Source of the DNA: an uncultured Actinomycetota bacterium
Lineage (GTDB): Bacteria; Actinomycetota; Geothermincolia; Geothermincolales; Geothermincolaceae
Direction: 5' to 3'
DNA length: 64,000 bases
Assembly (NCBI GenBank): GCA_964515075.1
Contig: CAZETE010000004.1
Span: 3,353 to 67,352 of the forward strand
Below the pieces are notes generated by a model. That model did not search any database, was not told the DNA's origin, and saw only the letters and a list, made by a program, of their open reading frames with translations. Below are positions 2,807 to 52,803 of this stretch, piece by piece (position 1 is the stretch's first letter; each line of letters opens with the position of its first letter). A program made the position numbers and the translations under genes.

Positions 2807-2870
2807 GCCGGCAGCGAAAAGGCGGCCCTTGCGAGCCGCCTCCGTTCGTGCGCGCCCGGGCGCCCGGGAC

Positions 2871-3275
2871 CTAGAGCGGGTCGGGGTTGCGGAAGCTGGG
2901 CTTGTAGGTGACCCTGCGCATCTTGTTGAAGACCACGTTCATGGAGCGGGAGAAGACGTCGGGCTTGAGCTCCTCCACCATCTTGGTGACGAAACGCTGG
3001 TTCTTGTTGAGCGATTCCGCGATGGCGGCGGGGTCCAGCTCGCCCATGAGCTTGGTCATGAACCCGGGGTTGGCGTTGATGGGGGCGGCCAGGGCCTTGG
3101 GGTCCAGTTCGGGGATGACCTTGCCCATGAACTCCCCGCTGTCGTTGACGATGCCGGCGACGATCTTGGGATCCAGCGTGGACAGCATGCCCTTGACCAT
3201 GCCGGCCAGCAGCTTGCCCATCAGGTTGGTGATGGTGCCGGCGATGGAACCCATCATCTCGAACAGTGCGCTCAT
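2871..3275 (-). CDS. small protein with four ~23-aa tandem repeats (LDPxxxAxxxNxNxxFxxKxxxE); function unknown
   Basis: A 134 aa ORF (MSALFEMMGS...) with internal repeats LDPKIVAGIVNDSGEFMGKVIPE / LDPKALAAPINANPGFMTKLMGE / LDPAAIAESLNKNQRFVTKMVEE / LKPDVFSRSMNVVFNKMRRV. Codon usage is typical of the host. It has a GGGAGGT ribosome-binding site and an AT-rich promoter region immediately upstream. Confidence 0.55.
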   Translation of the reverse strand: MSALFEMMGSIAGTITNLMGKLLAGMVKGMLSTLDPKIVAGIVNDSGEFMGKVIPELDPKALAAPINANPGFMTKLMGELDPAAIAESLNKNQRFVTKMVEELKPDVFSRSMNVVFNKMRRVTYKPSFRNPDPL

Positions 3276-3344
3276 CCTCTACCTCCCTTAGTAGATACCA
3301 ATACTGACCATCCAGTCTTTGCAGCTTCTCTTTGCTGCCATTCC

Positions 3345-3400
3345 ATTATAGTACACTCCGTCGGAAATTCCCACCCCAATTTAGCAGGCATTATGCTTCA
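3345..3400 (-). promoter_or_regulatory. AT-rich promoter region (minus strand) with a -10-like TACTATAAT for the repeat-protein gene
   Basis: The minus-strand sequence ...TTGGGGTGGGAATTTCCGACGGAGTGTACTATAATGG... lies about 70 nt upstream of the ATG. Local GC is far below the genome average. A ribosome-binding site GGGAGGT precedes the ATG. Confidence 0.4.
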
Positions 3401-3528
3401 GCTAGTTATATTGACTAGTTAGTACATATAACTTATAGTCATCAGGAGCCGCCTCTCGGGGCCCCGCACCCCCCTTCCCGCTAGGCCCGCCTCCCGGCGC
3501 CCCCGCCGCCGGGCCCCCGGCCGGCTCA

Positions 3529-3558
3529 TTGACATCGTACCGGCCTGCGCCCATAATT
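3529..3558 (+). promoter_or_regulatory. sigma70-like promoter (TTGACA-17nt-CATAAT) upstream of the homocysteine-synthesis genes
   Basis: TTGACA at 3529-3534, a 17 nt spacer, then CATAAT at 3552-3557. Confidence 0.45.
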
Positions 3559-3564
3559 GACTGG

Positions 3565-3842
3565 TCCGGGTCGTTGATAAGTGAATATCCGAGCAAAGGC
3601 TGAGAAGGGGAGGAGTAGGTCCGCCGGTTGCGCTACAGAGAGCCGAGCCGAGGTTGAGAATCGGTGCGCGACAACGGGCCGAAGATGGCCCCGGAGCTTC
3701 CCGCCGAAAGGGCGACCGAGTAGGCGAGGACGGACGCCCCCGTCACCACGGGCTTAGGGTATCGCGCCGTAGGCGCCGCACCTGAACGGGACGGTTCTCC
3801 GGAGGGATCCGCCGGCTGGTGCGCCGCCGGTGGGTTTTTCAT
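3565..3842 (+). ncRNA. ~270 nt 5' leader RNA (candidate riboswitch or attenuator, class unassigned) ending in a terminator-like hairpin
   Basis: No credible ORF lies between the promoter at 3529 and the DUF39 start at 3932. A GC-rich hairpin CCGGC-9nt-GCCGG at about 3812-3830 is followed by TGGGTTTTTCATTT. Promoter, structured leader and terminator preceding a sulfur-amino-acid biosynthesis gene is the classic riboswitch architecture. I could not match the SAM-I/S-box consensus convincingly. Confidence 0.35.
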
Positions 3843-3931: not shown

Positions 3932-5119
3932 ATGGCGAAGACGATCGCCGAGATAAACGAGAAGATACGGGCGGGCAGCGTGGTGGTGGTCACCGCCGAG
4001 GAGATCATCGACCTGGTCAAACGCGAAGGCGCCGAGGCCGCGGCGGAGAAGGTGGACGTGGTCACCACCGGCACCTTCGGCCCCATGTGCTCCTCGGGGG
4101 CCTTCATCAACCTGGGCCATTCCAAGCCGCGCATCAAGATCTCCCGGGCCACCCTCAACGGGGTGCCCGCCTACTCCGGCATCGCCGCGGTGGACGTCTA
4201 CATAGGGGCCACCGAGCTGCCCGAGAACGACCCCTTGAACGAGGTCTTCCCGGGCGAGTTCAAGTACGGCGGAGGGCACGTCATCGAGGACCTGGTGGCC
4301 GGGCGCAAGGTCAGGCTGGAGGCCCACTCCTACGGCACCGACTGTTACCCCAACCGCCGCTGGGAGAGGGACCTCACCCTTTCCGAGATGGGCGACGCCT
4401 TCCTCTTCAACCCGCGCAACGGCTACCAGAACTACAACGTGGCGGTGAACCGCTCCGACCGCATCATCTACACCTACATGGGCCTGCTCCGCCCCGAGCT
4501 GGGCAACGCCAACTACTGCTCGGCCGGGCAGCTCAGCCCGCTCCTGAACGACCCCTGCTTCCGCACCATCGGCGTGGGGACGCGCATCTTCCTGGGCGGC
4601 GGCGTGGGCTACGTGGCCTGGAACGGCACCCAGCACAACCCGGAGGTGCCCCGCACCGCCGGGGGCGCGCCGCGCCTGCCCTCGGGGACCCTGTCGGTCC
4701 TGGGCGACCTCAAGGGGATGAGCCCCCGCTGGCTGGTGGGCAACTCCTTCCTGGGCTACGGCGCCACCATGAGCGTGGGCCTGGGCATCCCCATCCCGGT
4801 GCTGGACGCGGAGGTGGCGCGGGCCGCCGCCGTCTCCGACGCGGAGCTGTTCGCCCCGGTGGTGGACTACTCCCTCGACTACCCGCAGGGCACCGGCAAG
4901 CTCCTGGGGGAGGTGAGCTACGCCCAGCTGAAGAGCGGCTCCTTCCGGCTGGAGGGCCGGGAGGTGCTGGCCGCCCCCCTCTCCAGCTACCCGCGGGCCC
5001 GGGAGATCGCCGAGACCTTGAAGGACTGGATAGAGAAGGGCGGGTTCCTGCTGGGCGAGCCGGCGCAGCTGCTGCCCTGCCCCGCCCGGGACGGGACCGC
5101 GCCCGCAGGAGGTGAATGA
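3932..5119 (+). CDS. DUF39 (COG1900) homocysteine-biosynthesis enzyme (L-aspartate-semialdehyde sulfurtransferase, MA1821-like)
   Basis: A 395 aa ORF (MAKTIAEINEKIRAGSVVVVTAEEIIDLVK...) typical of the DUF39 family. It is directly followed by, and overlaps by 4 nt, the gene for its known NIL-ferredoxin partner. Confidence 0.8.
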   Translation: MAKTIAEINEKIRAGSVVVVTAEEIIDLVKREGAEAAAEKVDVVTTGTFGPMCSSGAFINLGHSKPRIKISRATLNGVPAYSGIAAVDVYIGATELPENDPLNEVFPGEFKYGGGHVIEDLVAGRKVRLEAHSYGTDCYPNRRWERDLTLSEMGDAFLFNPRNGYQNYNVAVNRSDRIIYTYMGLLRPELGNANYCSAGQLSPLLNDPCFRTIGVGTRIFLGGGVGYVAWNGTQHNPEVPRTAGGAPRLPSGTLSVLGDLKGMSPRWLVGNSFLGYGATMSVGLGIPIPVLDAEVARAAAVSDAELFAPVVDYSLDYPQGTGKLLGEVSYAQLKSGSFRLEGREVLAAPLSSYPRAREIAETLKDWIEKGGFLLGEPAQLLPCPARDGTAPAGGE

Positions 5120-5526
5120 CCGTGCATCGCAAGGTGGTTCTGCATTTCCCCCACGAGCAGGTGGACAAGCCCATCGTCAGCCGCCTGGTCAAGGACTTCG
5201 ACATGGACTTCAACATCCTCAAGGCCCAGATAACCCCGCGGGAGGAGGGCATCCTGGTGCTGGACCTCATCGGGCCGGAGGAGAACTTCAACCGCAGCAT
5301 CCGCTACCTGGAGGAGCAGCGGGTGGTCATCCAGCCCCTGTCGCAGGACATCCGGCGGAACGATGAGCGCTGCACCCACTGCGGCGCCTGCACGGGCGTC
5401 TGCCCCTCCCGGGCGCTCTTCATCGACAGGAAGAGCATGGAGGTCCGCTTCGACGAGGAGGAGTGCGTGGCCTGCGAGCTGTGCGTGCGCGTCTGCCCGT
5501 CGCGGGCCATGGAGGTCCACTACTGA
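5116..5526 (+). CDS. NIL-domain / 2x[4Fe-4S] ferredoxin partner of the DUF39 enzyme (MA1822-like)
   Basis: A 136 aa ORF with an N-terminal NIL domain and two CxxCxxCxxxCP motifs (CTHCGACTGVCP, CVACELCVRVCP). Confidence 0.8.
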   Translation: MTVHRKVVLHFPHEQVDKPIVSRLVKDFDMDFNILKAQITPREEGILVLDLIGPEENFNRSIRYLEEQRVVIQPLSQDIRRNDERCTHCGACTGVCPSRALFIDRKSMEVRFDEEECVACELCVRVCPSRAMEVHY

Positions 5527-15843: not shown

Positions 15844-17934
15844 GTGAGGAAGTTCTTCCAACCGAGGTCGGTGGCGGTCATCGGGGCGTCGGACAAGCCC
15901 GGCAAGGTCGGGCGGGTGGTGCTGGAGAGCCTGGTCAACTCGGGGTTCCCGGGCGAGATAGTGCCGGTGAACCCCAACGACCCGCAGATCATGGGCTTTA
16001 AGTCCTACCCCGCGGTCTCGGACATCCCCTACGTGCCCGACCTGGCCATGATCATCGTGCCGGCCAGGCTGGTCCCCGGCGTGCTGGAGGAGTGCGGCGC
16101 CAAGGGCATCGAGGCGGCGGTGATCATCTCGGCCGGCTTCAAGGAGGCGGGCAAGGAGGGCTACCGGCTGGAGCGGCAGCTGGCGGAGGTGGCCGCGAAG
16201 TACCCCATGCGGGTGCTCGGCCCCAACTGCCTGGGCCTGGCCGACACCTCCACCCCCATCAACGCCACCTTCGCCAGCATCTACCCCCTCACCGGGCGGC
16301 TGGCCTTCTTCTCGCAGTCGGGAGCGCTGTGCACGGCGGCCCTGGGCTGGTCGCAGGAGATCGGGCTGGGCTTCTCCAAGTTCGTCTCCATCGGCAACAA
16401 GATGGACATCGACGAGGTGGACCTGCTCAAGGCCCTGGAGGACGACTGGCACTCGGCGGTCATCGCCGGGTACCTGGAAGGCATCAACCGGGGCGAGGAG
16501 TTCCTCCGCCTGGCCGGAGAGGTCACCCGCAAGAAGCCGGTGATCATCTTCAAGGCCGGCACCACCCAGGCGGGGGCCAAGGCGGTGTCCTCGCACACCG
16601 GCACCCTGGCCGGCTCGGAGAACGCCTACATCGCCTCCTTCAAGCGCACCGGGGTCATCCGCGCGGAGACCATGGAGGACCTCTTCCAGGTCTGCCGGGG
16701 CTTCTCCCAGCAGCCGGTCCCCGCCGGCCGCGGCGTGGTCATCGTGACCAACGCGGGCGGCCCGGGCATCATCACCGCCGACGCCCTGGAGCACGAGGAG
16801 CTCAACCTGGCCGGGCTGGAGGCCTCGACCATCGAGTCCCTGAGGCGGTGCCTGCCGCCCGCCGCCGCCGTCTACAACCCGGTGGACGTCCTGGGGGACG
16901 CCCTGGCCGAGCGCTACCGGGACGCCTTGGAGATCCTGATGCTCGACCGCAACGTCGACAGCGTCGTGGTCATCCTCACCCCGCAGGCCATGACCCAGAT
17001 CCCCGAGACCGCCCAGGCCGTGGCCGAGGCCTGCGCCGGCAAAGGCAAGAGCATCTTCACGGTGTTCATGGGGGGCTCGGAGATCGAGCCGGCGGAGAAG
17101 ATCCTCTACGCCGCGGGCATCCCCAACTACCGCTTTCCCGAGGTGGCGGTGCGCACCATCAAGGCCATGGTGGACTACCGCGAGTACCTGGACCGGCCGC
17201 CCGACGAGTTCCGGCGGTTCCCGGCGGACCGGGAGGCGGTCCGGGAGGTCCTGGACCAGGTGAGGGCGGAGGGCCGCTACCAGCTGGGCGAGGTGGAGGC
17301 CAGCGAGGTCTTCCGCCATTACGGCATCCCGGTGGCCAGGACCATCCTCGGCACCAACCTCTTCGAGTGCATCGAGGCGGGCCGGGAGATCGGCTACCCG
17401 GTGGTGGCCAAGATCGCCTCCCCCCAGATCCTGCACAAGACCGACGTGGGCGGGGTCAAGGTGGGCCTGGAGAACACCGACGACCTCATCTCCGCCTACG
17501 AGGAGATCACCGCCAACGCCCGGCGGCTGATGCCCGAGGCCCAGATCTGGGGGGTGGTGGTGCAGGAGATGCTCAAGCCCTCCAAGGAACTGATCGTGGG
17601 CGTCAACCGCGACCCCCAGTTCGGGCCGCTGATCATGGTGGGCCTGGGCGGCATCTACGTCGAGGTCATCAAGGACATCAGCTTCCGCCTGGCGCCGGTG
17701 GGGGAGCGGGAGGCCACGGAGATGATCAGGGAGCTCAAGTCCTACTGGCTGCTCCGCGGGGCCCGGGGCGAGACGCCCGCGGACATCGGCAAGCTGGCGG
17801 AGGTCATCCAGCGCATCTCCCAGCTGGTCACCGACTTCCCCGACATCCAGGAGCTGGACATAAACCCCTTGAGGGTCTTCGACAAGGGCCAAGGCTGCAC
17901 GGCGGCCGACGCCAGGATGATCATAGGAGAGTGA
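15844..17934 (+). CDS. ADP-forming acetyl/acyl-CoA synthetase (NDP-forming), fused alpha-beta type
   Basis: A 696 aa ORF starting at GTG. It has a CoA-binding and succinyl-CoA-synthetase-like alpha part plus a C-terminal ATP-grasp beta domain (..YPVVAKIASPQILHKTDVGGVKVGL..). Confidence 0.85.
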   Translation: MRKFFQPRSVAVIGASDKPGKVGRVVLESLVNSGFPGEIVPVNPNDPQIMGFKSYPAVSDIPYVPDLAMIIVPARLVPGVLEECGAKGIEAAVIISAGFKEAGKEGYRLERQLAEVAAKYPMRVLGPNCLGLADTSTPINATFASIYPLTGRLAFFSQSGALCTAALGWSQEIGLGFSKFVSIGNKMDIDEVDLLKALEDDWHSAVIAGYLEGINRGEEFLRLAGEVTRKKPVIIFKAGTTQAGAKAVSSHTGTLAGSENAYIASFKRTGVIRAETMEDLFQVCRGFSQQPVPAGRGVVIVTNAGGPGIITADALEHEELNLAGLEASTIESLRRCLPPAAAVYNPVDVLGDALAERYRDALEILMLDRNVDSVVVILTPQAMTQIPETAQAVAEACAGKGKSIFTVFMGGSEIEPAEKILYAAGIPNYRFPEVAVRTIKAMVDYREYLDRPPDEFRRFPADREAVREVLDQVRAEGRYQLGEVEASEVFRHYGIPVARTILGTNLFECIEAGREIGYPVVAKIASPQILHKTDVGGVKVGLENTDDLISAYEEITANARRLMPEAQIWGVVVQEMLKPSKELIVGVNRDPQFGPLIMVGLGGIYVEVIKDISFRLAPVGEREATEMIRELKSYWLLRGARGETPADIGKLAEVIQRISQLVTDFPDIQELDINPLRVFDKGQGCTAADARMIIGE

Positions 17935-27095: not shown

Positions 27096-27298
27096 CGTCC
27101 TACCTCTGGCTCCCGTCAGCCGTTTCCTGACGCTACGTCATATCGCGGGCGGAAGAACGCCCTCCGACTCTATATCTTACTTCGGTTCGGGCGCTTTTGC
27201 CATTAAACCGTCCGACCCCTCTTTATGATACGCTTTTAGGGACCGGCTGTCCTTGCGCGACGACAAGCAGAGGGAGGTGTGCCGTGCTGGGAGGCTAC

Positions 27299-29188
27299 AT
27301 GGGCCGGGTGCTCGAGGTCGACCTGAGCACCGGCGAAACGCGTACTTTCTCACTATCCGACAGGATGCTGGAGCTCTACGTGGGCAGCAAGGGCCTGGGG
27401 GCCCGGCTGCTCTACGAGCTCCTGCCCCCCGGAGTGGACCCGCTGGGCCCGGAGAACGTCCTCATCGTCACCACCGCGCCCATGACCGGCACCGGGGCGC
27501 CCAGCGCCAACCGTTTCAACGTCACCTCCAAGTCGCCCGCCACCGGCCTCATCGTCAACTCCAACAGCGGCGGCAACTTCGGGGTGCACCTCAAGCGCTC
27601 GGGCTTCGACGCCCTGATCATCCGGGGCAGGGCGCCCAGGCTGAGCTGGCTGAAGATAGAGAACGGCGAGGCCTCCATCGAGGACGCCGCGCACCTGCGG
27701 GGCCTGGATACCGAGGAGACGCAGGAGAAGCTGCCCAAGAAGATGGGGAAGATGGTCATCGGGCCGGCGGGGGAGAACCTGGTCAAGTTCGCTTCCATCT
27801 TCTCCCAGGAGCGGGTGGCGGGCCGCGCCGGCATCGGCACGGTGATGGGCTCCAAGAACCTCAAGGCGGTGGCGGCGGGCGGCGACCGGAAGCCCCGGCT
27901 GCCGGACGAGGAGAAGTACAGGGAGGTCTGCAAGGGATGGCGGGAGGTGCTCAAGAGGCACCCGGCCACCGGGGAGGCCATGCCCGGCTACGGGACGGCC
28001 GGCTTCATCAACGTCTGCAACGCCACCCACACCATGCCCACCCGCAACTTCCAGCAGGGCCAGTTCCGCGCCATCGACGCGGTGAGCGGGGAGACCCTGG
28101 CCGAGACCGAGTTGGTCAAGAACTACGCCTGCTTCGGCTGCGTCATCGCCTGCGGACGCCGGGTGGAGGTGGACGGCAAGGTAGTCAAGGGCCCGGAGTA
28201 CGAGACCCTGGGGCTCTTCGGCCCCAACCTGGGCAACGCCGACCTCAAGGCCATCCTGCGCTGGAACTACGAGTGCGACCTGCTGGGCATGGACGCCATC
28301 AGCGTGGGCAACATCCTCGGCTTCGCCATGGAGGCGGGGGAGAGGGGCCTGCTCCCGACGGACTTGAGGTTCGGCAGGACCGACGGCATCTCCCGGGCCA
28401 TCGAGGACATGGCCTTCAGGCGGGGGCTGGGCGACGAAATGGCCGAGGGGGTGCGCTCCCTCTCCCGCAAGTACGGGGGGGAGGAGTTCGCCATCCAGTC
28501 CAAGGGGCTGGAGATACCCTCCTACGAACCCCGGGGCGCGGTGGGCCACGGGCTGGGATACGCCGTCTCCAACCGCGGCGGCTGCCACCTGGCCGGCGGG
28601 TACATGATCTACCTGGAGGCCAACGGGCCGGTCACCGTCGACCCCCTGGCGACCACCGGCAAGGCCGGATTGACCATCCTCAACCAGACCGTGCTGGAGG
28701 CCGTGAGCAACCTGGGGTGCTGCAACTTCACCGTCTTCACCATGCTCCACCCGCTGCTGCTGGAGTGGAACGCTCGCTCGCGGCTGGTGGCCAAGGCGCT
28801 GTCGAAGGGCTTCCTCTACTCGGGGGACCTGCTGGGCGCGGCCCTGTCCCTGCCCGACTGGACCATGCCCATCCCGGCCCCCTTCAGCATGTTCCCCCAG
28901 GTGAAGGCGCACGCCGTGTGCACCGGCACCAACTTCACCATGGGCAAGTTCCTCGCCCTGGGGCAGCGGGCCAACAACATCGACCGCCTCTTCAATGCGC
29001 GCGAGGGATTCACCGCCAAGGACGACACCCTGCCCCGCCGCTTCACCGACGAGCTGCAGCGCATGGACGAGCCCGGCTCCATCGTGCGCCTGGAGAGGAT
29101 GAAGAAGCGCTACTACCTGCTGCGCGGCTGGAAGGCGGACGGCACGCCCCGGGACTCGACCTTGCGGCGGCTGAAGATAGAGAAGTAG
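27299..29188 (+). CDS. aor: aldehyde:ferredoxin oxidoreductase (tungsten/pterin-dependent AOR family)
   Basis: An AOR N-terminal domain (MGRVLEVDLSTGE...) with conserved (..APSANRFNVTSKSPATG..) and cluster/pterin-binding regions. Alternative in-frame starts exist at GTG 27281 and ATG 27197. Confidence 0.88.
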   Translation: MGRVLEVDLSTGETRTFSLSDRMLELYVGSKGLGARLLYELLPPGVDPLGPENVLIVTTAPMTGTGAPSANRFNVTSKSPATGLIVNSNSGGNFGVHLKRSGFDALIIRGRAPRLSWLKIENGEASIEDAAHLRGLDTEETQEKLPKKMGKMVIGPAGENLVKFASIFSQERVAGRAGIGTVMGSKNLKAVAAGGDRKPRLPDEEKYREVCKGWREVLKRHPATGEAMPGYGTAGFINVCNATHTMPTRNFQQGQFRAIDAVSGETLAETELVKNYACFGCVIACGRRVEVDGKVVKGPEYETLGLFGPNLGNADLKAILRWNYECDLLGMDAISVGNILGFAMEAGERGLLPTDLRFGRTDGISRAIEDMAFRRGLGDEMAEGVRSLSRKYGGEEFAIQSKGLEIPSYEPRGAVGHGLGYAVSNRGGCHLAGGYMIYLEANGPVTVDPLATTGKAGLTILNQTVLEAVSNLGCCNFTVFTMLHPLLLEWNARSRLVAKALSKGFLYSGDLLGAALSLPDWTMPIPAPFSMFPQVKAHAVCTGTNFTMGKFLALGQRANNIDRLFNAREGFTAKDDTLPRRFTDELQRMDEPGSIVRLERMKKRYYLLRGWKADGTPRDSTLRRLKIEK

Positions 29189-34960: not shown

Positions 34961-36445
34961 TCAGGCGTCCCGCTTCCGCCCGGGGCCCCGCAGGTACCCG
35001 CCCCGGGCCGCCAGGCAGCTCATCACCCGCACCGCCCGCTCCGGCGTGGAGTAGATGCACACCTGCCGGTGCCCCTCGGGGAGCCTGCTCGCCTCGTCCT
35101 CGCGCTGGGGCATGCCCACGGTCAGGATGGGCTTGCCGTGGCGGGCGATGAGCTCGATGAGGGCGCTCATGAAATCCTCGGTCATGGCCTGCATGCGCCG
35201 CCGCATCGCCGCCCGCGCCTCGCCGTCCAGGTCGCTCGACCCGCTGGCCAGCATCTCCTGGAAGGAGACGTTGGCGTTGACCGTGCCCAGGGAGATCACG
35301 GCGTCGTAAGCGTCGCTGGCCGCCAGCTCCTCGAGGCAGCGGGTGTGGGACTCGACGTCGAAGACCCCCACCAGGTCCACGGGGTTGCCCTTGCTCCAGT
35401 AGGACGGGAGCAGCTCCGAGAACCTCCGCTTGAGCTCGTCGGGCAGCGGGTCCACCGAGAGCCCCTCGCGCTCGCAGAGGTCGGCCGTGACCACGCCCCA
35501 CCCGCCGCCCCAGGTGAGGACGGCCACCCGGCTGCCCCGGGGCAGGGGCATCTTCACCAGGGCGTCGGAGACGTCCAGCATCTCCTCGGTGGTGGCGGCG
35601 CGGACCAGGCCCAGCTGGTCGATCATCCCCTCGTAGACCTCCCGGCTGCCGGCCAGGGCCGCGGAGTGGGAGGCGGCGGCGGCGCTACCGGCGCGGGTGC
35701 CGCCCGCCTTGTAGATGACGATGGGCTTGGCCGCGCTGATCCGGCGGGCCGCCTCGCAGAAGCGGCGGGGGTCCTTGAAGCCCTCCACGTAGAGGAGGAT
35801 GACCCGGGTCAGGTCGTCCCGGGAGAAGTACTCCAGGTAGTCCACGAAGTCCAGGTCGCACTCGTTGCCGATGCAGACGAAGCGGGAGAAGCCCACCCCG
35901 CGATGCGCCCCGAAGCCCAGCATCTGGGTGCCCAGGTTGCCGCTCTGGGCGGCGAAGGCGATGCTGCCGGGGAGGGGGCGGATCGGGGGCATCAGCGCCG
36001 TCAGGCTGTGGGGGGCGGAATAGACGCCCATGGTGTTGGGGCCGACGACACGCAGGCCGCTGGAGTGGGCGCGCCGGACCATCTCCGCTTCCAGCTCCCG
36101 GCCTTCCGGGCCGGACTCGCTGAACCCCCCGGAGATGACGATGACCGCTCTGGCGCCCGCCCGGCCGCACTCCTCCATCATCCCCCCGGCCCGCCCCGCG
36201 GGGATGGTCATCAGCACCAGGTCCGGCCGGTCGGGGACCTCTTCCAGGCTGCGGTACACGGGCATGCCGTGGACGGTGCCGCCCCGCGGGTTCACCAGGT
36301 ACAGCCTGCCCCGGTAGCCTCCCCGCAGGATGTTGCCGGGGATGATGCTGCCCCACTTGTCGTAATGCCTGGAGGCGCCGAGGACCGCGACGCTGCGCGG
36401 GTTGAAGAGGGCCTCCGCGGCCTCCTGGGCATCCGGTACGCTCAT
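34961..36445 (-). CDS. CoA-binding acyl-CoA synthetase (NDP-forming) alpha-type protein without ATP-grasp domain
   Basis: A 494 aa ORF with a CoA-binding Rossmann fold and succinyl-CoA-synthetase-like flavodoxin domain (..RSVAVLGASRHYDKWG.., ..VGPNTMGV..). It is a paralogue of the alpha part of the 15844 gene. Confidence 0.7.
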   Translation of the reverse strand: MSVPDAQEAAEALFNPRSVAVLGASRHYDKWGSIIPGNILRGGYRGRLYLVNPRGGTVHGMPVYRSLEEVPDRPDLVLMTIPAGRAGGMMEECGRAGARAVIVISGGFSESGPEGRELEAEMVRRAHSSGLRVVGPNTMGVYSAPHSLTALMPPIRPLPGSIAFAAQSGNLGTQMLGFGAHRGVGFSRFVCIGNECDLDFVDYLEYFSRDDLTRVILLYVEGFKDPRRFCEAARRISAAKPIVIYKAGGTRAGSAAAASHSAALAGSREVYEGMIDQLGLVRAATTEEMLDVSDALVKMPLPRGSRVAVLTWGGGWGVVTADLCEREGLSVDPLPDELKRRFSELLPSYWSKGNPVDLVGVFDVESHTRCLEELAASDAYDAVISLGTVNANVSFQEMLASGSSDLDGEARAAMRRRMQAMTEDFMSALIELIARHGKPILTVGMPQREDEASRLPEGHRQVCIYSTPERAVRVMSCLAARGGYLRGPGRKRDA

Positions 36446-51243: not shown

Positions 51244-52803
51244 TCAGGCGTCGGCCGGGTAGAAGAAGAGCCCCACGGTGCCGGGGCCGGTGTGCGAGCC
51301 GATGACCGGGCCGGTCTCGTTGACGAGGATGCTTCCGGCCTCGCAGCCGAACGCCTCGGCCACCAGCTCCTTCAGGGCCTGGCCGGCCCGCTCGTCGGAG
51401 ACGTGGGTGACGCCCAGCACCGGCCGGCGGCCGCCCAGGTCCTCCTTGGCCAGCTCGACGATGCGCGCCACCGCCTTCTGGGTGCCCCGGGCCTTCTCCT
51501 TGGCGTCGATGGTACCGTGGATGGTCAGGATGGGCTTGACCTTGAGCACGCCGCCCAGGAAGGCCTGCGCCCCCCCGATGCGCCCCCCCTTGCGCAGGTA
51601 CTCCAGGGTGTCCACGGCGAAGTAGACCTTCGACCCGTCGACGACGGCCCGGAGCCGCTCCACGACGGCGTCGAGGTCCGCGCCGTCCCGGATCATCCCG
51701 AGGGCCTCCTCGATGAGCATGTAGATGCCCATGGAGGTGGACATGGAGTCCACCACCTCGATGCGGGTGCCCGCCATCTCGGCGGCGGCGGAGCGCGCCG
51801 ACTCCATGGTGCCGCTGATCCCCCCGGAGATGTGGATGGAGAGGATCTGCTCGTACCTGCCGGCCATCTCCTTGTACGCCTCCGAGAACTCGCCCACGCT
51901 GGGCTGGGAGGTGGTGGGAAACCCGTCGAAGGCCTTGAGTTTTGAGAAGAACTCCTCGTGCGTGAGGTCGACTCCCTCGCAGAAGGACTCGTCCGCGAAG
52001 ATGACCTTCAGCGGGACCACCTTGATATCGCGCTCGCGCACGTAATCCTCGTCCAGGTACGCGGTGCTGTCGGTCACTATGCCAATTTTCCCCGCCAATT
52101 CGCACTCCCCTTTCCTTGGTCCTCGCCTCTCCTCCATCAGGGAACAGGCCGCGCGCGCGGCCATCTGTTCGGCCTCCTTCTTGCTGCGCCCCTCTCCCTG
52201 CCCCGCCTTCTCCCCTCCCAGCCACACCTCGGCGTGGAAGAGCTTAGCGTGGTCCGGGCCCTCGCCCCAGGCGCGGTAGGCGGGCAGCACGCCGCGGGCC
52301 TTGACGGACCACTCCTGCAGCCGGGTCTTGTAGTCGGAGCGCGGGCCCCGGCTCGCCGCCTCCCGCATGCGCTCCCCCAGGACCCTCTCCACCAGCCTGC
52401 CGGCCTCCTCCAGGCCCTTGTCCAGGTAGACCGCCCCGATGAGGGCCTCCAGGGCGTCGGCCAGGACTGATTCCTTGCCCCGGGCGCCGTCCGACTCCGC
52501 CGACGGGCTGAGCAGTATGTGCTCCCCCAGGCCCGCCTCGCCCGCCGCCCGCGCCAGGGCCGCGTCGCTGACCAGCCAGGCCCGGGCCTTGGTGAGGTCG
52601 CCTTCCGCGGCCTCCGGGTCGCTGCGGTAGAGGTAGTCGGTGACCACCATCCCGAGCACCGCGTCGCCGAGGAACTCCAGCCGCTCGAAGGAGCCGGCGG
52701 CCCCGCCTCCCTGCCAGTGGGCGCGCGAGCGGTGGGTCAGGGCCAGCTCCAGCAGCCCCTTGTCGCGGAAGTCCAGCCCCAGGGATGCCTCGAGGTCCCC
52801 CAT
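51244..52803 (-). CDS. rnc: ribonuclease III fused in-frame to a DegV/FakB fatty-acid-binding domain
   Basis: The first 234 aa form a complete RNase III (..ERLEFLGDAVLG.., dsRBD ..KKEAEQMAARAACSLMEE). With no stop codon, a complete DegV follows (..KIGIVTDSTAYLDEDYVRERDIKVVPL....VGLFFYPADA). The internal sequence GGGGAG-N6-TTG at about 52096 could also allow separate DegV initiation. Confidence 0.75.
   Translation of the reverse strand: MGDLEASLGLDFRDKGLLELALTHRSRAHWQGGGAAGSFERLEFLGDAVLGMVVTDYLYRSDPEAAEGDLTKARAWLVSDAALARAAGEAGLGEHILLSPSAESDGARGKESVLADALEALIGAVYLDKGLEEAGRLVERVLGERMREAASRGPRSDYKTRLQEWSVKARGVLPAYRAWGEGPDHAKLFHAEVWLGGEKAGQGEGRSKKEAEQMAARAACSLMEERRGPRKGECELAGKIGIVTDSTAYLDEDYVRERDIKVVPLKVIFADESFCEGVDLTHEEFFSKLKAFDGFPTTSQPSVGEFSEAYKEMAGRYEQILSIHISGGISGTMESARSAAAEMAGTRIEVVDSMSTSMGIYMLIEEALGMIRDGADLDAVVERLRAVVDGSKVYFAVDTLEYLRKGGRIGGAQAFLGGVLKVKPILTIHGTIDAKEKARGTQKAVARIVELAKEDLGGRRPVLGVTHVSDERAGQALKELVAEAFGCEAGSILVNETGPVIGSHTGPGTVGLFFYPADA

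Follow-up and report, generated by a model that had tools for sequence, protein, structure and literature searches.

We describe here a gene for a 134-residue repeat protein that lies on the minus strand at 2871–3275 of a 64,000-nucleotide stretch of DNA (the window; contig CAZETE010000004.1) from an uncultured bacterium of the Geothermincolia (Actinomycetota). The protein carries a 23-residue repeat that constitutes an undescribed family, absent from Pfam, NCBIfam and the PDB, and its sequence suggests an alpha-solenoid, which is a known kind of protein, with a new 23-residue unit. The original prediction suggested that it could be an abundant structural or scaffold protein, and this general idea agrees with what its sequence suggests, namely a small, non-enzymatic-looking, all-helical repeat protein whose predicted expression signals are those of a highly expressed gene. 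We tentatively propose that it serves, at or close to the membrane, as an adaptor or scaffold that is abundant and has no enzymatic activity, a role that we consider possible rather than probable.

The coding sequence (2871–3275, minus strand, stop codon included) is supported by the open reading frame (ORF) call, the internal repeats, the orthologues and the ratio of nonsynonymous to synonymous substitution rates (dN/dS). It starts with an ATG at 3275–3273, two codons downstream of an in-frame TAG. The G+C fraction at its first, second and third codon positions (GC1, GC2 and GC3) is 0.53, 0.37 and 0.956, respectively, in a window of 68.9% GC, and an antisense ORF (2908–3291, plus strand) has a GC3 of 0.94, as high as that of the minus-strand ORF. 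Because GC3 is high on both strands, composition has no power to decide between them, and the minus strand is settled by the homologues, the Shine-Dalgarno sequence and the repeat family. The exact 134-residue protein is present on seven independent short metagenome contigs, and samples with the gene include SRR15734605, SRR15734599 and SRR21375692. A word-indexed search retrieved one homologue with 67% identity, and two soil metagenome-assembled genomes (MAGs) carry orthologues that are 84% and 87% identical, the latter frameshifted; all three occupy the same position as the window gene. In the frameshifted copy (locus L009, 9974–10391, plus strand, MAG MFD04716.bin.1.266) the frame changes after ...ELDPGG and the remainder is in another frame, which reflects either an assembly error or a pseudogene. 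The extreme GC3 depresses dS and so inflates the dN/dS values of 0.41–0.52 obtained for the window, L008 and L001 copies. Purifying selection acts on the ORF, which is a genuine chromosomal gene. No match to the protein was found in phage records, plasmid records or viral contigs that would point to a mobile element, and neither the window nor any locus retrieved contains a paralogue. That no gene is translated here, the ORF being a chance one or the antisense ORF the true one, could draw on the equally high GC3 of the antisense ORF and on the lack of the exact sequence in the protein collection queried, but we regard it as extremely improbable, given that over 100 family members conserve the length and both ends, that the Shine-Dalgarno sequence, start context and terminator are conserved on the minus strand, that the internal repeats are highly significant, that the gene is called on the seven contigs, and that the AlphaFold2 model is confident.

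The protein can be divided into an amphipathic N-terminal helix (residues 1–33), three 23-residue helical hairpins capped by DP or NP (34–102), a degenerate fourth unit predicted as one helix (103–125) and a basic, low-confidence tail (122–134), which ends with ...NKxRxATYRP. The four units begin at residues 34, 57, 80 and 103, and their sum-of-pairs BLOSUM62 score is 175, against −124 ± 24 in 20,000 shuffled sequences (z = 12.6). The description of four strict repeats holds for units 1–3, which fit the pattern L-D-P-x3-A-x3-N-x-N/S-x2-F-x2-K-x3-E exactly, but not for unit 4 (LKPDVFSRSMNVVFNKMRRVTYK), which keeps only the L-K-P and Asn11, is 17–22% identical to units 1–3 and is predicted to form one long helix. 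Cysteine, histidine and tryptophan are absent from the protein, and methionine makes up 9.0% of it, against 2.5 ± 0.8% (maximum 5%) in the 41 other window genes. No signal peptide, lipobox or transmembrane segment was found in it.

The claim that the protein has no recognisable family stands as far as curated libraries are concerned: with the window protein, Pfam, NCBIfam and PHROGs gave nothing or chance matches only (0 Pfam families at E ≤ 10), and neither the single protein nor the family or repeat profile found more than chance-level matches among PDB sequences. The protein is not an orphan, though: among 1.84 billion representatives searched exhaustively with HMMER, 117 cluster representatives matched at E ≤ 1e-3, 47 of them at E ≤ 1e-10. 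These relatives point to Chloroflexota and Actinomycetota as the lineages to search, and not to Firmicutes, which the original prediction had named together with candidate phyla. Two architectures dominate among them, small proteins that can be aligned with the window protein over their full length and giants with many repeats. The small form (130–160 residues; named sources are Anaerolinea, an Actinomycetota MAG and Candidatus Geothermincolia) begins with M-S-x-L-x-x-x-G-x-x-x-G-K-...-L-I-x-G-...-D-P, continues with three or four repeats and ends with P-(N/D)-V-F-x-R-S-...-N-K-x-R-x-A-T-Y-R-P. The window protein has the N-terminal segment, the repeats and the C-terminal motif of this subfamily (alignments A2 to A4), and residues M1, G9, G29, D81 and P105 show no variation among 11 to 19 aligned sequences. 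The repeat consensus, taken from 47 full double units, is L-D-P-x-[VA]-[LIV]-A-x-[VA]-[IV]-N-x-N-[PGQ]-x-F-[LMV]-[TS]-x-L-[ILM]-x-x. A 46-column double-repeat profile hidden Markov model matched 607 stretches among 146 proteins, including two in the window protein (independent E-values of 2e-22 and 6e-23), which contains at least two consecutive units of the 'LDP-NxN-F' type; a word-index search with the same 46-column alignment found nothing. A Woesearchaeota hit (L010, 36% identity over 57 residues) was set aside as a chance match, being a histidine-phosphatase-like ORF that shares the seed peptide PINANPDF.

The AlphaFold check suggested by the original prediction yielded an all-helical model. 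With two sequences the mean predicted local distance difference test score (pLDDT) was 58, and with a 25-sequence alignment it rose to 83 (85–92 across the repeats), with a predicted template modelling score (pTM) of 0.53. Helices in the latter model span residues 3–33, 36–45, 47–56, 59–68, 70–79, 82–91, 93–102 and 105–121, and the last 13 residues (122–134) form the low-confidence tail. In the model each repeat is a hairpin of two 10-residue helices, N-capped by the conserved D-P and N-[PGQ], respectively. Hydrophobic residues make up nearly all of helix A (positions 5, 6, 7, 9 and 10) and helix B is amphipathic (positions 16, 17, 20 and 21), a predicted pattern consistent with a two-layer alpha-solenoid, which would be short in the small protein. 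The amphipathic character of the N-terminal helix resides in the first 14 residues throughout the family, is accompanied by a positive charge in most members, and gives hydrophobic moments of 0.41–0.94, which in 17 of 18 members are reached by at most 5% of shuffled sequences. Foldseek found no fold match with the pLDDT-83 model, and there was no clear match to a characterised family.

The only curated family that recurs in these comparisons is the XPC-binding domain (PF09280), which was found in 3 of 25 small members (best E = 1.7e-5) and in the giants with 28–32 bits, above the cut-off of 26.4 but summed over weak stretches. STI1 domains are eukaryotic co-chaperone modules, and the STI1/DP and RAD23 XPC-binding domains resemble our protein in their runs of short helices opened by DP or NP, Hop DP2 and RAD23 being examples. 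The window protein is also rich in methionine and has a possible 'placeholder' helix, which recalls the Met-rich hydrophobic groove and internal placeholder helix of ubiquilin STI1 domains (PMC13083928). We compared it by hhalign with Hop DP1, Hop DP2, yeast Sti1 DP2 and hHR23B, whose sequences had been checked against PDB entries, and rejected homology, as the probabilities were 0.8–5.7%. No STI1 or RAD23 chain was retrieved from the PDB by the repeat profile or by fold, and the fold comparison did not place the model with solved DP, XPC-binding or ubiquilin STI1 structures, which are compact helical domains with an open Met-rich hydrophobic groove. In addition, STI1/DP domains are irregular, with five or six helices, whereas the 23-residue period is regular here, and the methionine richness of the window subgroup is lost in the actinobacterial subgroup (1.4–4%). 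Membership of the STI1 family is thus rejected, and a similar mode of action may nevertheless apply.

Other helical repeat families were no closer. The MgtE N-terminal and FliG domains form a right-handed superhelix of short helices with repeats of the type 'L-x-P-x-x-A-A-x-(I/L)-L'. The giants give sub-threshold matches to MgtE_N (25.4 versus 25.9 bits), FliG_C and FliG_M, in which no single stretch passes, and the cytosolic domain of MgtE was the top Foldseek match of the first, pLDDT-58 model (E = 0.1). We discarded this assignment, as the pLDDT-83 model gave no such match and only 1 of the 25 small members gave a sequence match (E = 0.1); the surroundings of the small gene include neither a Mg2+ transporter nor flagellar genes. 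HEAT and ARM repeats, including PBS-lyase HEAT-like repeats, have units of about 30–47 residues, against 23 residues here. The window protein has no Pfam match to the HEAT, ARM or HEAT_PBS profiles, and one family member reached ARM_5 with E = 0.004 (16 bits, cut-off 27).

The giant relatives have 670–1014 residues, 9–14 matched stretches and an N-terminal transmembrane helix. In 14 metagenome loci (L017–L030) they occur as three tandem paralogues of 950–1010 residues each, as exemplified by the cassettes at 2014–10760 of L026 and 2100–10934 of L023, and these tandem giants, of about 1000 residues, contain around 20 repeat copies and match no Pfam family. The loci were retrieved with an alignment of giant N-termini, while a metagenome scan with one giant alone (P0002) had found nothing. 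In each of the three paralogues, the transmembrane helix is followed by G-x-L-x-G-K and then by the repeats, and the post-membrane segment, P-x-[RK]-x-P-x-G-x-L-x-G-K-x-x-S...L-x-x-L-D-P, is homologous to residues 8–35 of the small protein. The giants are acidic and rich in asparagine (net charge −19 to −83, 2.6–7% Lys + Arg), unlike the small proteins, which have an ordinary, balanced charge content. The charges flanking the transmembrane helix weakly favour an N-in/C-out orientation (N > C in 23 of 37, N < C in 1). Genes next to the cassettes encode secreted proteins, namely a subtilase (Peptidase_S8+Big_7+DUF5719) and a SpoIID+DUF5719 protein, and a HisKA_7TM kinase. From these sequence features the giants are probably surface proteins. 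Neither the window nor the 20-kb flanks of L008 and L009 yielded a giant gene. A literature search found no paper mentioning DUF5719 or the UniRef entry A0A7C4PKW7, to which we return below.

The signals around the small gene, all of them predicted, point to strong expression. The Shine-Dalgarno sequence GGGAGGT (3281–3287, minus strand), which the original prediction had singled out as strong, lies 5 nt before the ATG and is invariant in four loci (the window, L008, L009 and L001). The 30 nt before the ATG are in fact identical in all four, although their proteins are only 67–87% identical. A dedicated AT-rich promoter had also been proposed, and the region upstream of the gene (3276–3450) has 42% GC and contains a perfect −10 element, TATAAT (3345–3350, minus strand), invariant in the same four loci and accompanied by a weak −35. 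A second promoter-like site, TAGTCA-16-CATAAT (3390–3417, minus strand), lies in the same AT-rich region and is only partly conserved. The 5′ leader, with an inferred start and a predicted length of ~60 nt (3276–3339, minus strand), is predicted to fold into three hairpins (3338–3321, 3316–3303 and 3295–3278) with a minimum free energy of −17.1 kcal/mol (z = −2.67). The first of these sits at the predicted 5′ end of the leader, and by eye both sides of its stem have changed in L009 (GTAA...TTAC, versus GCAGC...GCTGC in the window); the third presents the 5′ part of the Shine-Dalgarno sequence in its loop in the predicted fold. The claim of optimal codons was borne out in part: with a GC3 of ~0.95 in all window genes this measure does not discriminate the small gene, but its share of C-ending codons in four-fold families is the highest of the 42 window genes (0.74 versus 0.56 ± 0.04, z = 4.3).

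Between the stop codon and the next gene lies a terminator-like hairpin (2815–2842, minus strand), GAGGCGGCUC-GCAA-GGGCCGCCUU followed by UUCGC, with a 10-bp GC-rich stem that is kept in the four loci and a short T run (4 T in the window). Its T run was too short for a simple terminator scan, which overlooked the hairpin. Typical terminators follow the more distant Anaerolineae-type copies, with 8 T in L032 and 6 T in L035, and the upstream regions of these copies have 30–43% GC, versus 50–67% for the locus. With its own promoter-like region, Shine-Dalgarno sequence and conserved terminator hairpin, the small gene therefore looks like a monocistronic, strongly translated unit and not like the first gene of an operon, as had been suggested originally.

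Downstream of the small gene, on the same strand, are a lipoprotein-like protein of ~695 residues (701–2788), a 90-residue HEAT_2 protein (311–583) and the N-terminus of a Memo-family protein (about 1–290). The first of these matches Transglut_core in the C-terminal half only (profile positions 42–107, E = 1.2e-6), and by eye it is without the catalytic Cys and His (GDDYERALAF... / NQAYLYGVGW), so that it is possibly a pseudo-enzyme. A syntenic contig, whose small protein clusters at 90% with UniRef A0A7C4PKW7 of Anaerolinea thermolimosa, has the gene order of the window on one side (clpC, cysE, cysS, radA, gltX, NIL/4Fe-4S and HcyBio, then the small gene) and, on the other side, genes for a Transglut_core protein, a CoA-binding protein, HEAT_2 and Memo. 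Identity between the two is 70–84% for the housekeeping proteins, 53% for the small protein and 40% for the transglutaminase-like protein, which evolves fast by this measure. From this synteny and these identities we took the host to be an Anaerolineae-like member of the Chloroflexota rather than a Firmicute; the assembly itself is classified in the Geothermincolia. The order small gene, transglutaminase-like gene, gene for an ADP-forming acetyl-CoA-synthetase-like CoA-binding protein, HEAT_2, Memo is kept in L032, L033 and L035, and the CoA-binding gene is absent at that position in the window. We considered whether the small protein could be a transglutaminase substrate, as it has one conserved Gln, 11 Lys and a Transglut_core neighbour, and dropped the idea: the neighbour matches half of the model, apparently has neither the Cys nor the His of the triad and looks like an exported lipoprotein, and moreover it is not found beside distant homologues and is unrelated to the neighbours of the giants.

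Elsewhere the surroundings of the small gene vary. In L011, L013 and L014, which represent two related lineages, they consist of DUF1269, DUF308 (HdeD-like), DUF6325, SHOCT and PLDc_N-SHOCT genes, in a Geothermincolia MAG of DUF5719 giants and a beta-propeller protein, in L015/L016 of glycosyltransferase, GH94 and penicillin amidase genes, with two Phasin (PF05597) genes ~4 kb away, and in L031 of glutaredoxin and CoA-binding genes. No conserved partner gene was found across the neighbourhoods of the loci compared. Envelope or membrane genes (the transglutaminase-like lipoprotein, the DUF5719 giants, DUF1269/DUF308/SHOCT) recur beside the small genes, which is a weak indication of an envelope connection.

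In the role that we tentatively favour, the small protein would be an abundant, non-catalytic binding or scaffolding module in the form of a short alpha-solenoid, produced at a high level from a stable monocistronic mRNA. Its amphipathic N-terminal helix would tether it to, or make contact with, the cytoplasmic membrane or a partner, and the stack of hairpins together with the conserved basic C-terminus would offer the interaction surface. Several points weigh against this proposal. The abundance, localisation and partners of the protein are predictions from sequence or model, as are the solenoid packing and the position of helix 3–33, in a model whose pTM is only 0.53, and the outlying codon bias is based on only ~60 codons. 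The neighbourhood is not conserved outside the Anaerolineae synteny block, and inside the block the synteny may only reflect the general synteny of housekeeping genes. Finally, the small form has no signal peptide or transmembrane segment and the giants look extracytoplasmic, and the compartments of the two may differ. A broader reading, which we consider unlikely, takes the 23-residue hairpin as the building unit of an undescribed architecture that Chloroflexota share with some Actinomycetota. The three tandem membrane-anchored paralogues of ~1000 residues would then form a cell-surface or sheath-like layer, and the leaderless, very highly expressed 130-residue form would be a partner dedicated to this layer, in the cytoplasm or the envelope, for example as assembly chaperone, membrane-side adaptor or subunit.

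A stress-protective or dormancy-associated protein, with a general stress or LEA-like (late embryogenesis abundant) role, would be induced strongly under particular conditions and would not be a constitutive scaffold. This is suggested by the homologues in L011, L013 and L014, which stand among genes that we take to belong to small membrane or stress-type families (DUF1269, the HdeD-like DUF308, DUF6325, SHOCT and PLDc_N-SHOCT), and it would suit a gene that stands alone behind a strong promoter-like region, with a long stretch upstream that could accommodate regulatory sites. That context is confined to one subgroup, though, no stress-regulator operator was recognised by eye in the conserved upstream part, and the protein is predicted to be well folded and not hydrophilic or disordered, which makes this role distinctly unlikely. 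Alternatively, the protein could be an exported building block or partner of the giant-repeat surface layer that leaves by a non-classical route. The repeat and the juxtamembrane segment are common to it and the extracytoplasmic-looking giants, other relatives appear from their sequences to have a signal peptide (P0097) or surface-type N-terminal regions (P0035 and P0060), and envelope genes adjoin several small copies. We give this little credence, as the small protein itself has no signal peptide, lipobox or transmembrane segment, its charge is balanced and cytoplasm-like, unlike that of the giants, and no giant gene was found to accompany it, whether in the window or around L008 and L009 (20-kb flanks).

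About as improbable, in our view, is an STI1/DP-like holdase, in which a Met-rich groove of DP- or NP-capped helices would bind hydrophobic or transmembrane segments, with the N-terminal helix as placeholder. The methionine content, several times that of the other window genes, the DP or NP at the start of successive short helices, a feature of both Hop DP2 and the RAD23 XPC-binding domain, and the recurrence of PF09280 as the most frequent Pfam signal speak for it, and the concept of groove and placeholder is that of PMC13083928; the points against homology given above count on the other side. The original prediction named phasins and coats of inclusions or shells as examples of a structural role, that is, amphipathic helices covering a hydrophobic granule or a protein shell. 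Phasins and exchangeable apolipoproteins, with their Pro-punctuated amphipathic 11/22-mers, do resemble the small protein in being small, probably abundant and helical with amphipathic segments, and in our protein a proline opens each unit of ~22–23 residues; in L015/L016, furthermore, the two phasin genes lie ~4 kb from the homologue. However, that neighbourhood occurs in one distant lineage only, and no phasin or apolipoprotein model matches the window protein or stands among the families listed for the 25 family members scanned. Those proteins have one long surface-seeking helix, whereas the unit here is a hairpin of two Pro-capped 10-residue helices whose hydrophobic helix A suggests a buried core. 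No polyhydroxyalkanoate (PHA) synthase, microcompartment or encapsulin gene was found among the window genes scanned, which are housekeeping genes, and we regard a granule or compartment coat as very unlikely.

Anaerolineae-type Chloroflexota are common in sediments, soils and digesters, and if the predicted expression holds, few of their proteins would be more abundant than this one. With a name for the repeat, no fewer than 117 cluster representatives could be annotated, among them the ~1000-residue membrane-anchored proteins of a conserved three-gene cassette next to secreted proteases, and the known types of solenoid would gain an unusually short unit, a 23-residue hairpin. Should the surface-layer reading be true, the small gene would give access to the envelope of filamentous Anaerolineae, which is poorly understood. 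The practical value will stay modest until a function or partner emerges, and the finding has no bearing yet on a long-standing open question.

Some further features of the window were observed. On the plus strand, upstream of the homocysteine-synthesis genes HcyBio (3932–5119) and NIL/4Fe-4S (5116–5526), is a T-box leader (RF00230, 3593–3762) with a score of 68 bits, under the gathering score of 93, and E = 7.6e-15. In the same region (3529–3831) it is preceded by a promoter-like site, TTGACA-17-CATAAT (3529–3557), and followed by a terminator-like hairpin with a T run (3815–3831). The specifier region reads GAAGAUGG, from which AUG (Met) is a plausible specifier codon. On the minus strand, a single ORF of 519 residues (51244–52803) combines RNase III (Ribonucleas_3_3 + dsrm) with a full DegV domain, representing either a fusion of an unusual kind or two genes that share a frame. 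Genes of the CoA_binding/Succ_CoA_lig type (ADP-forming acyl-CoA synthetase-type) are found at 15844–17934 (plus strand, with ATP-grasp_5) and 34961–36445 (minus strand), and an aldehyde:ferredoxin oxidoreductase is encoded at 27197–29188; together, these genes are consistent with a fermentative anaerobe.

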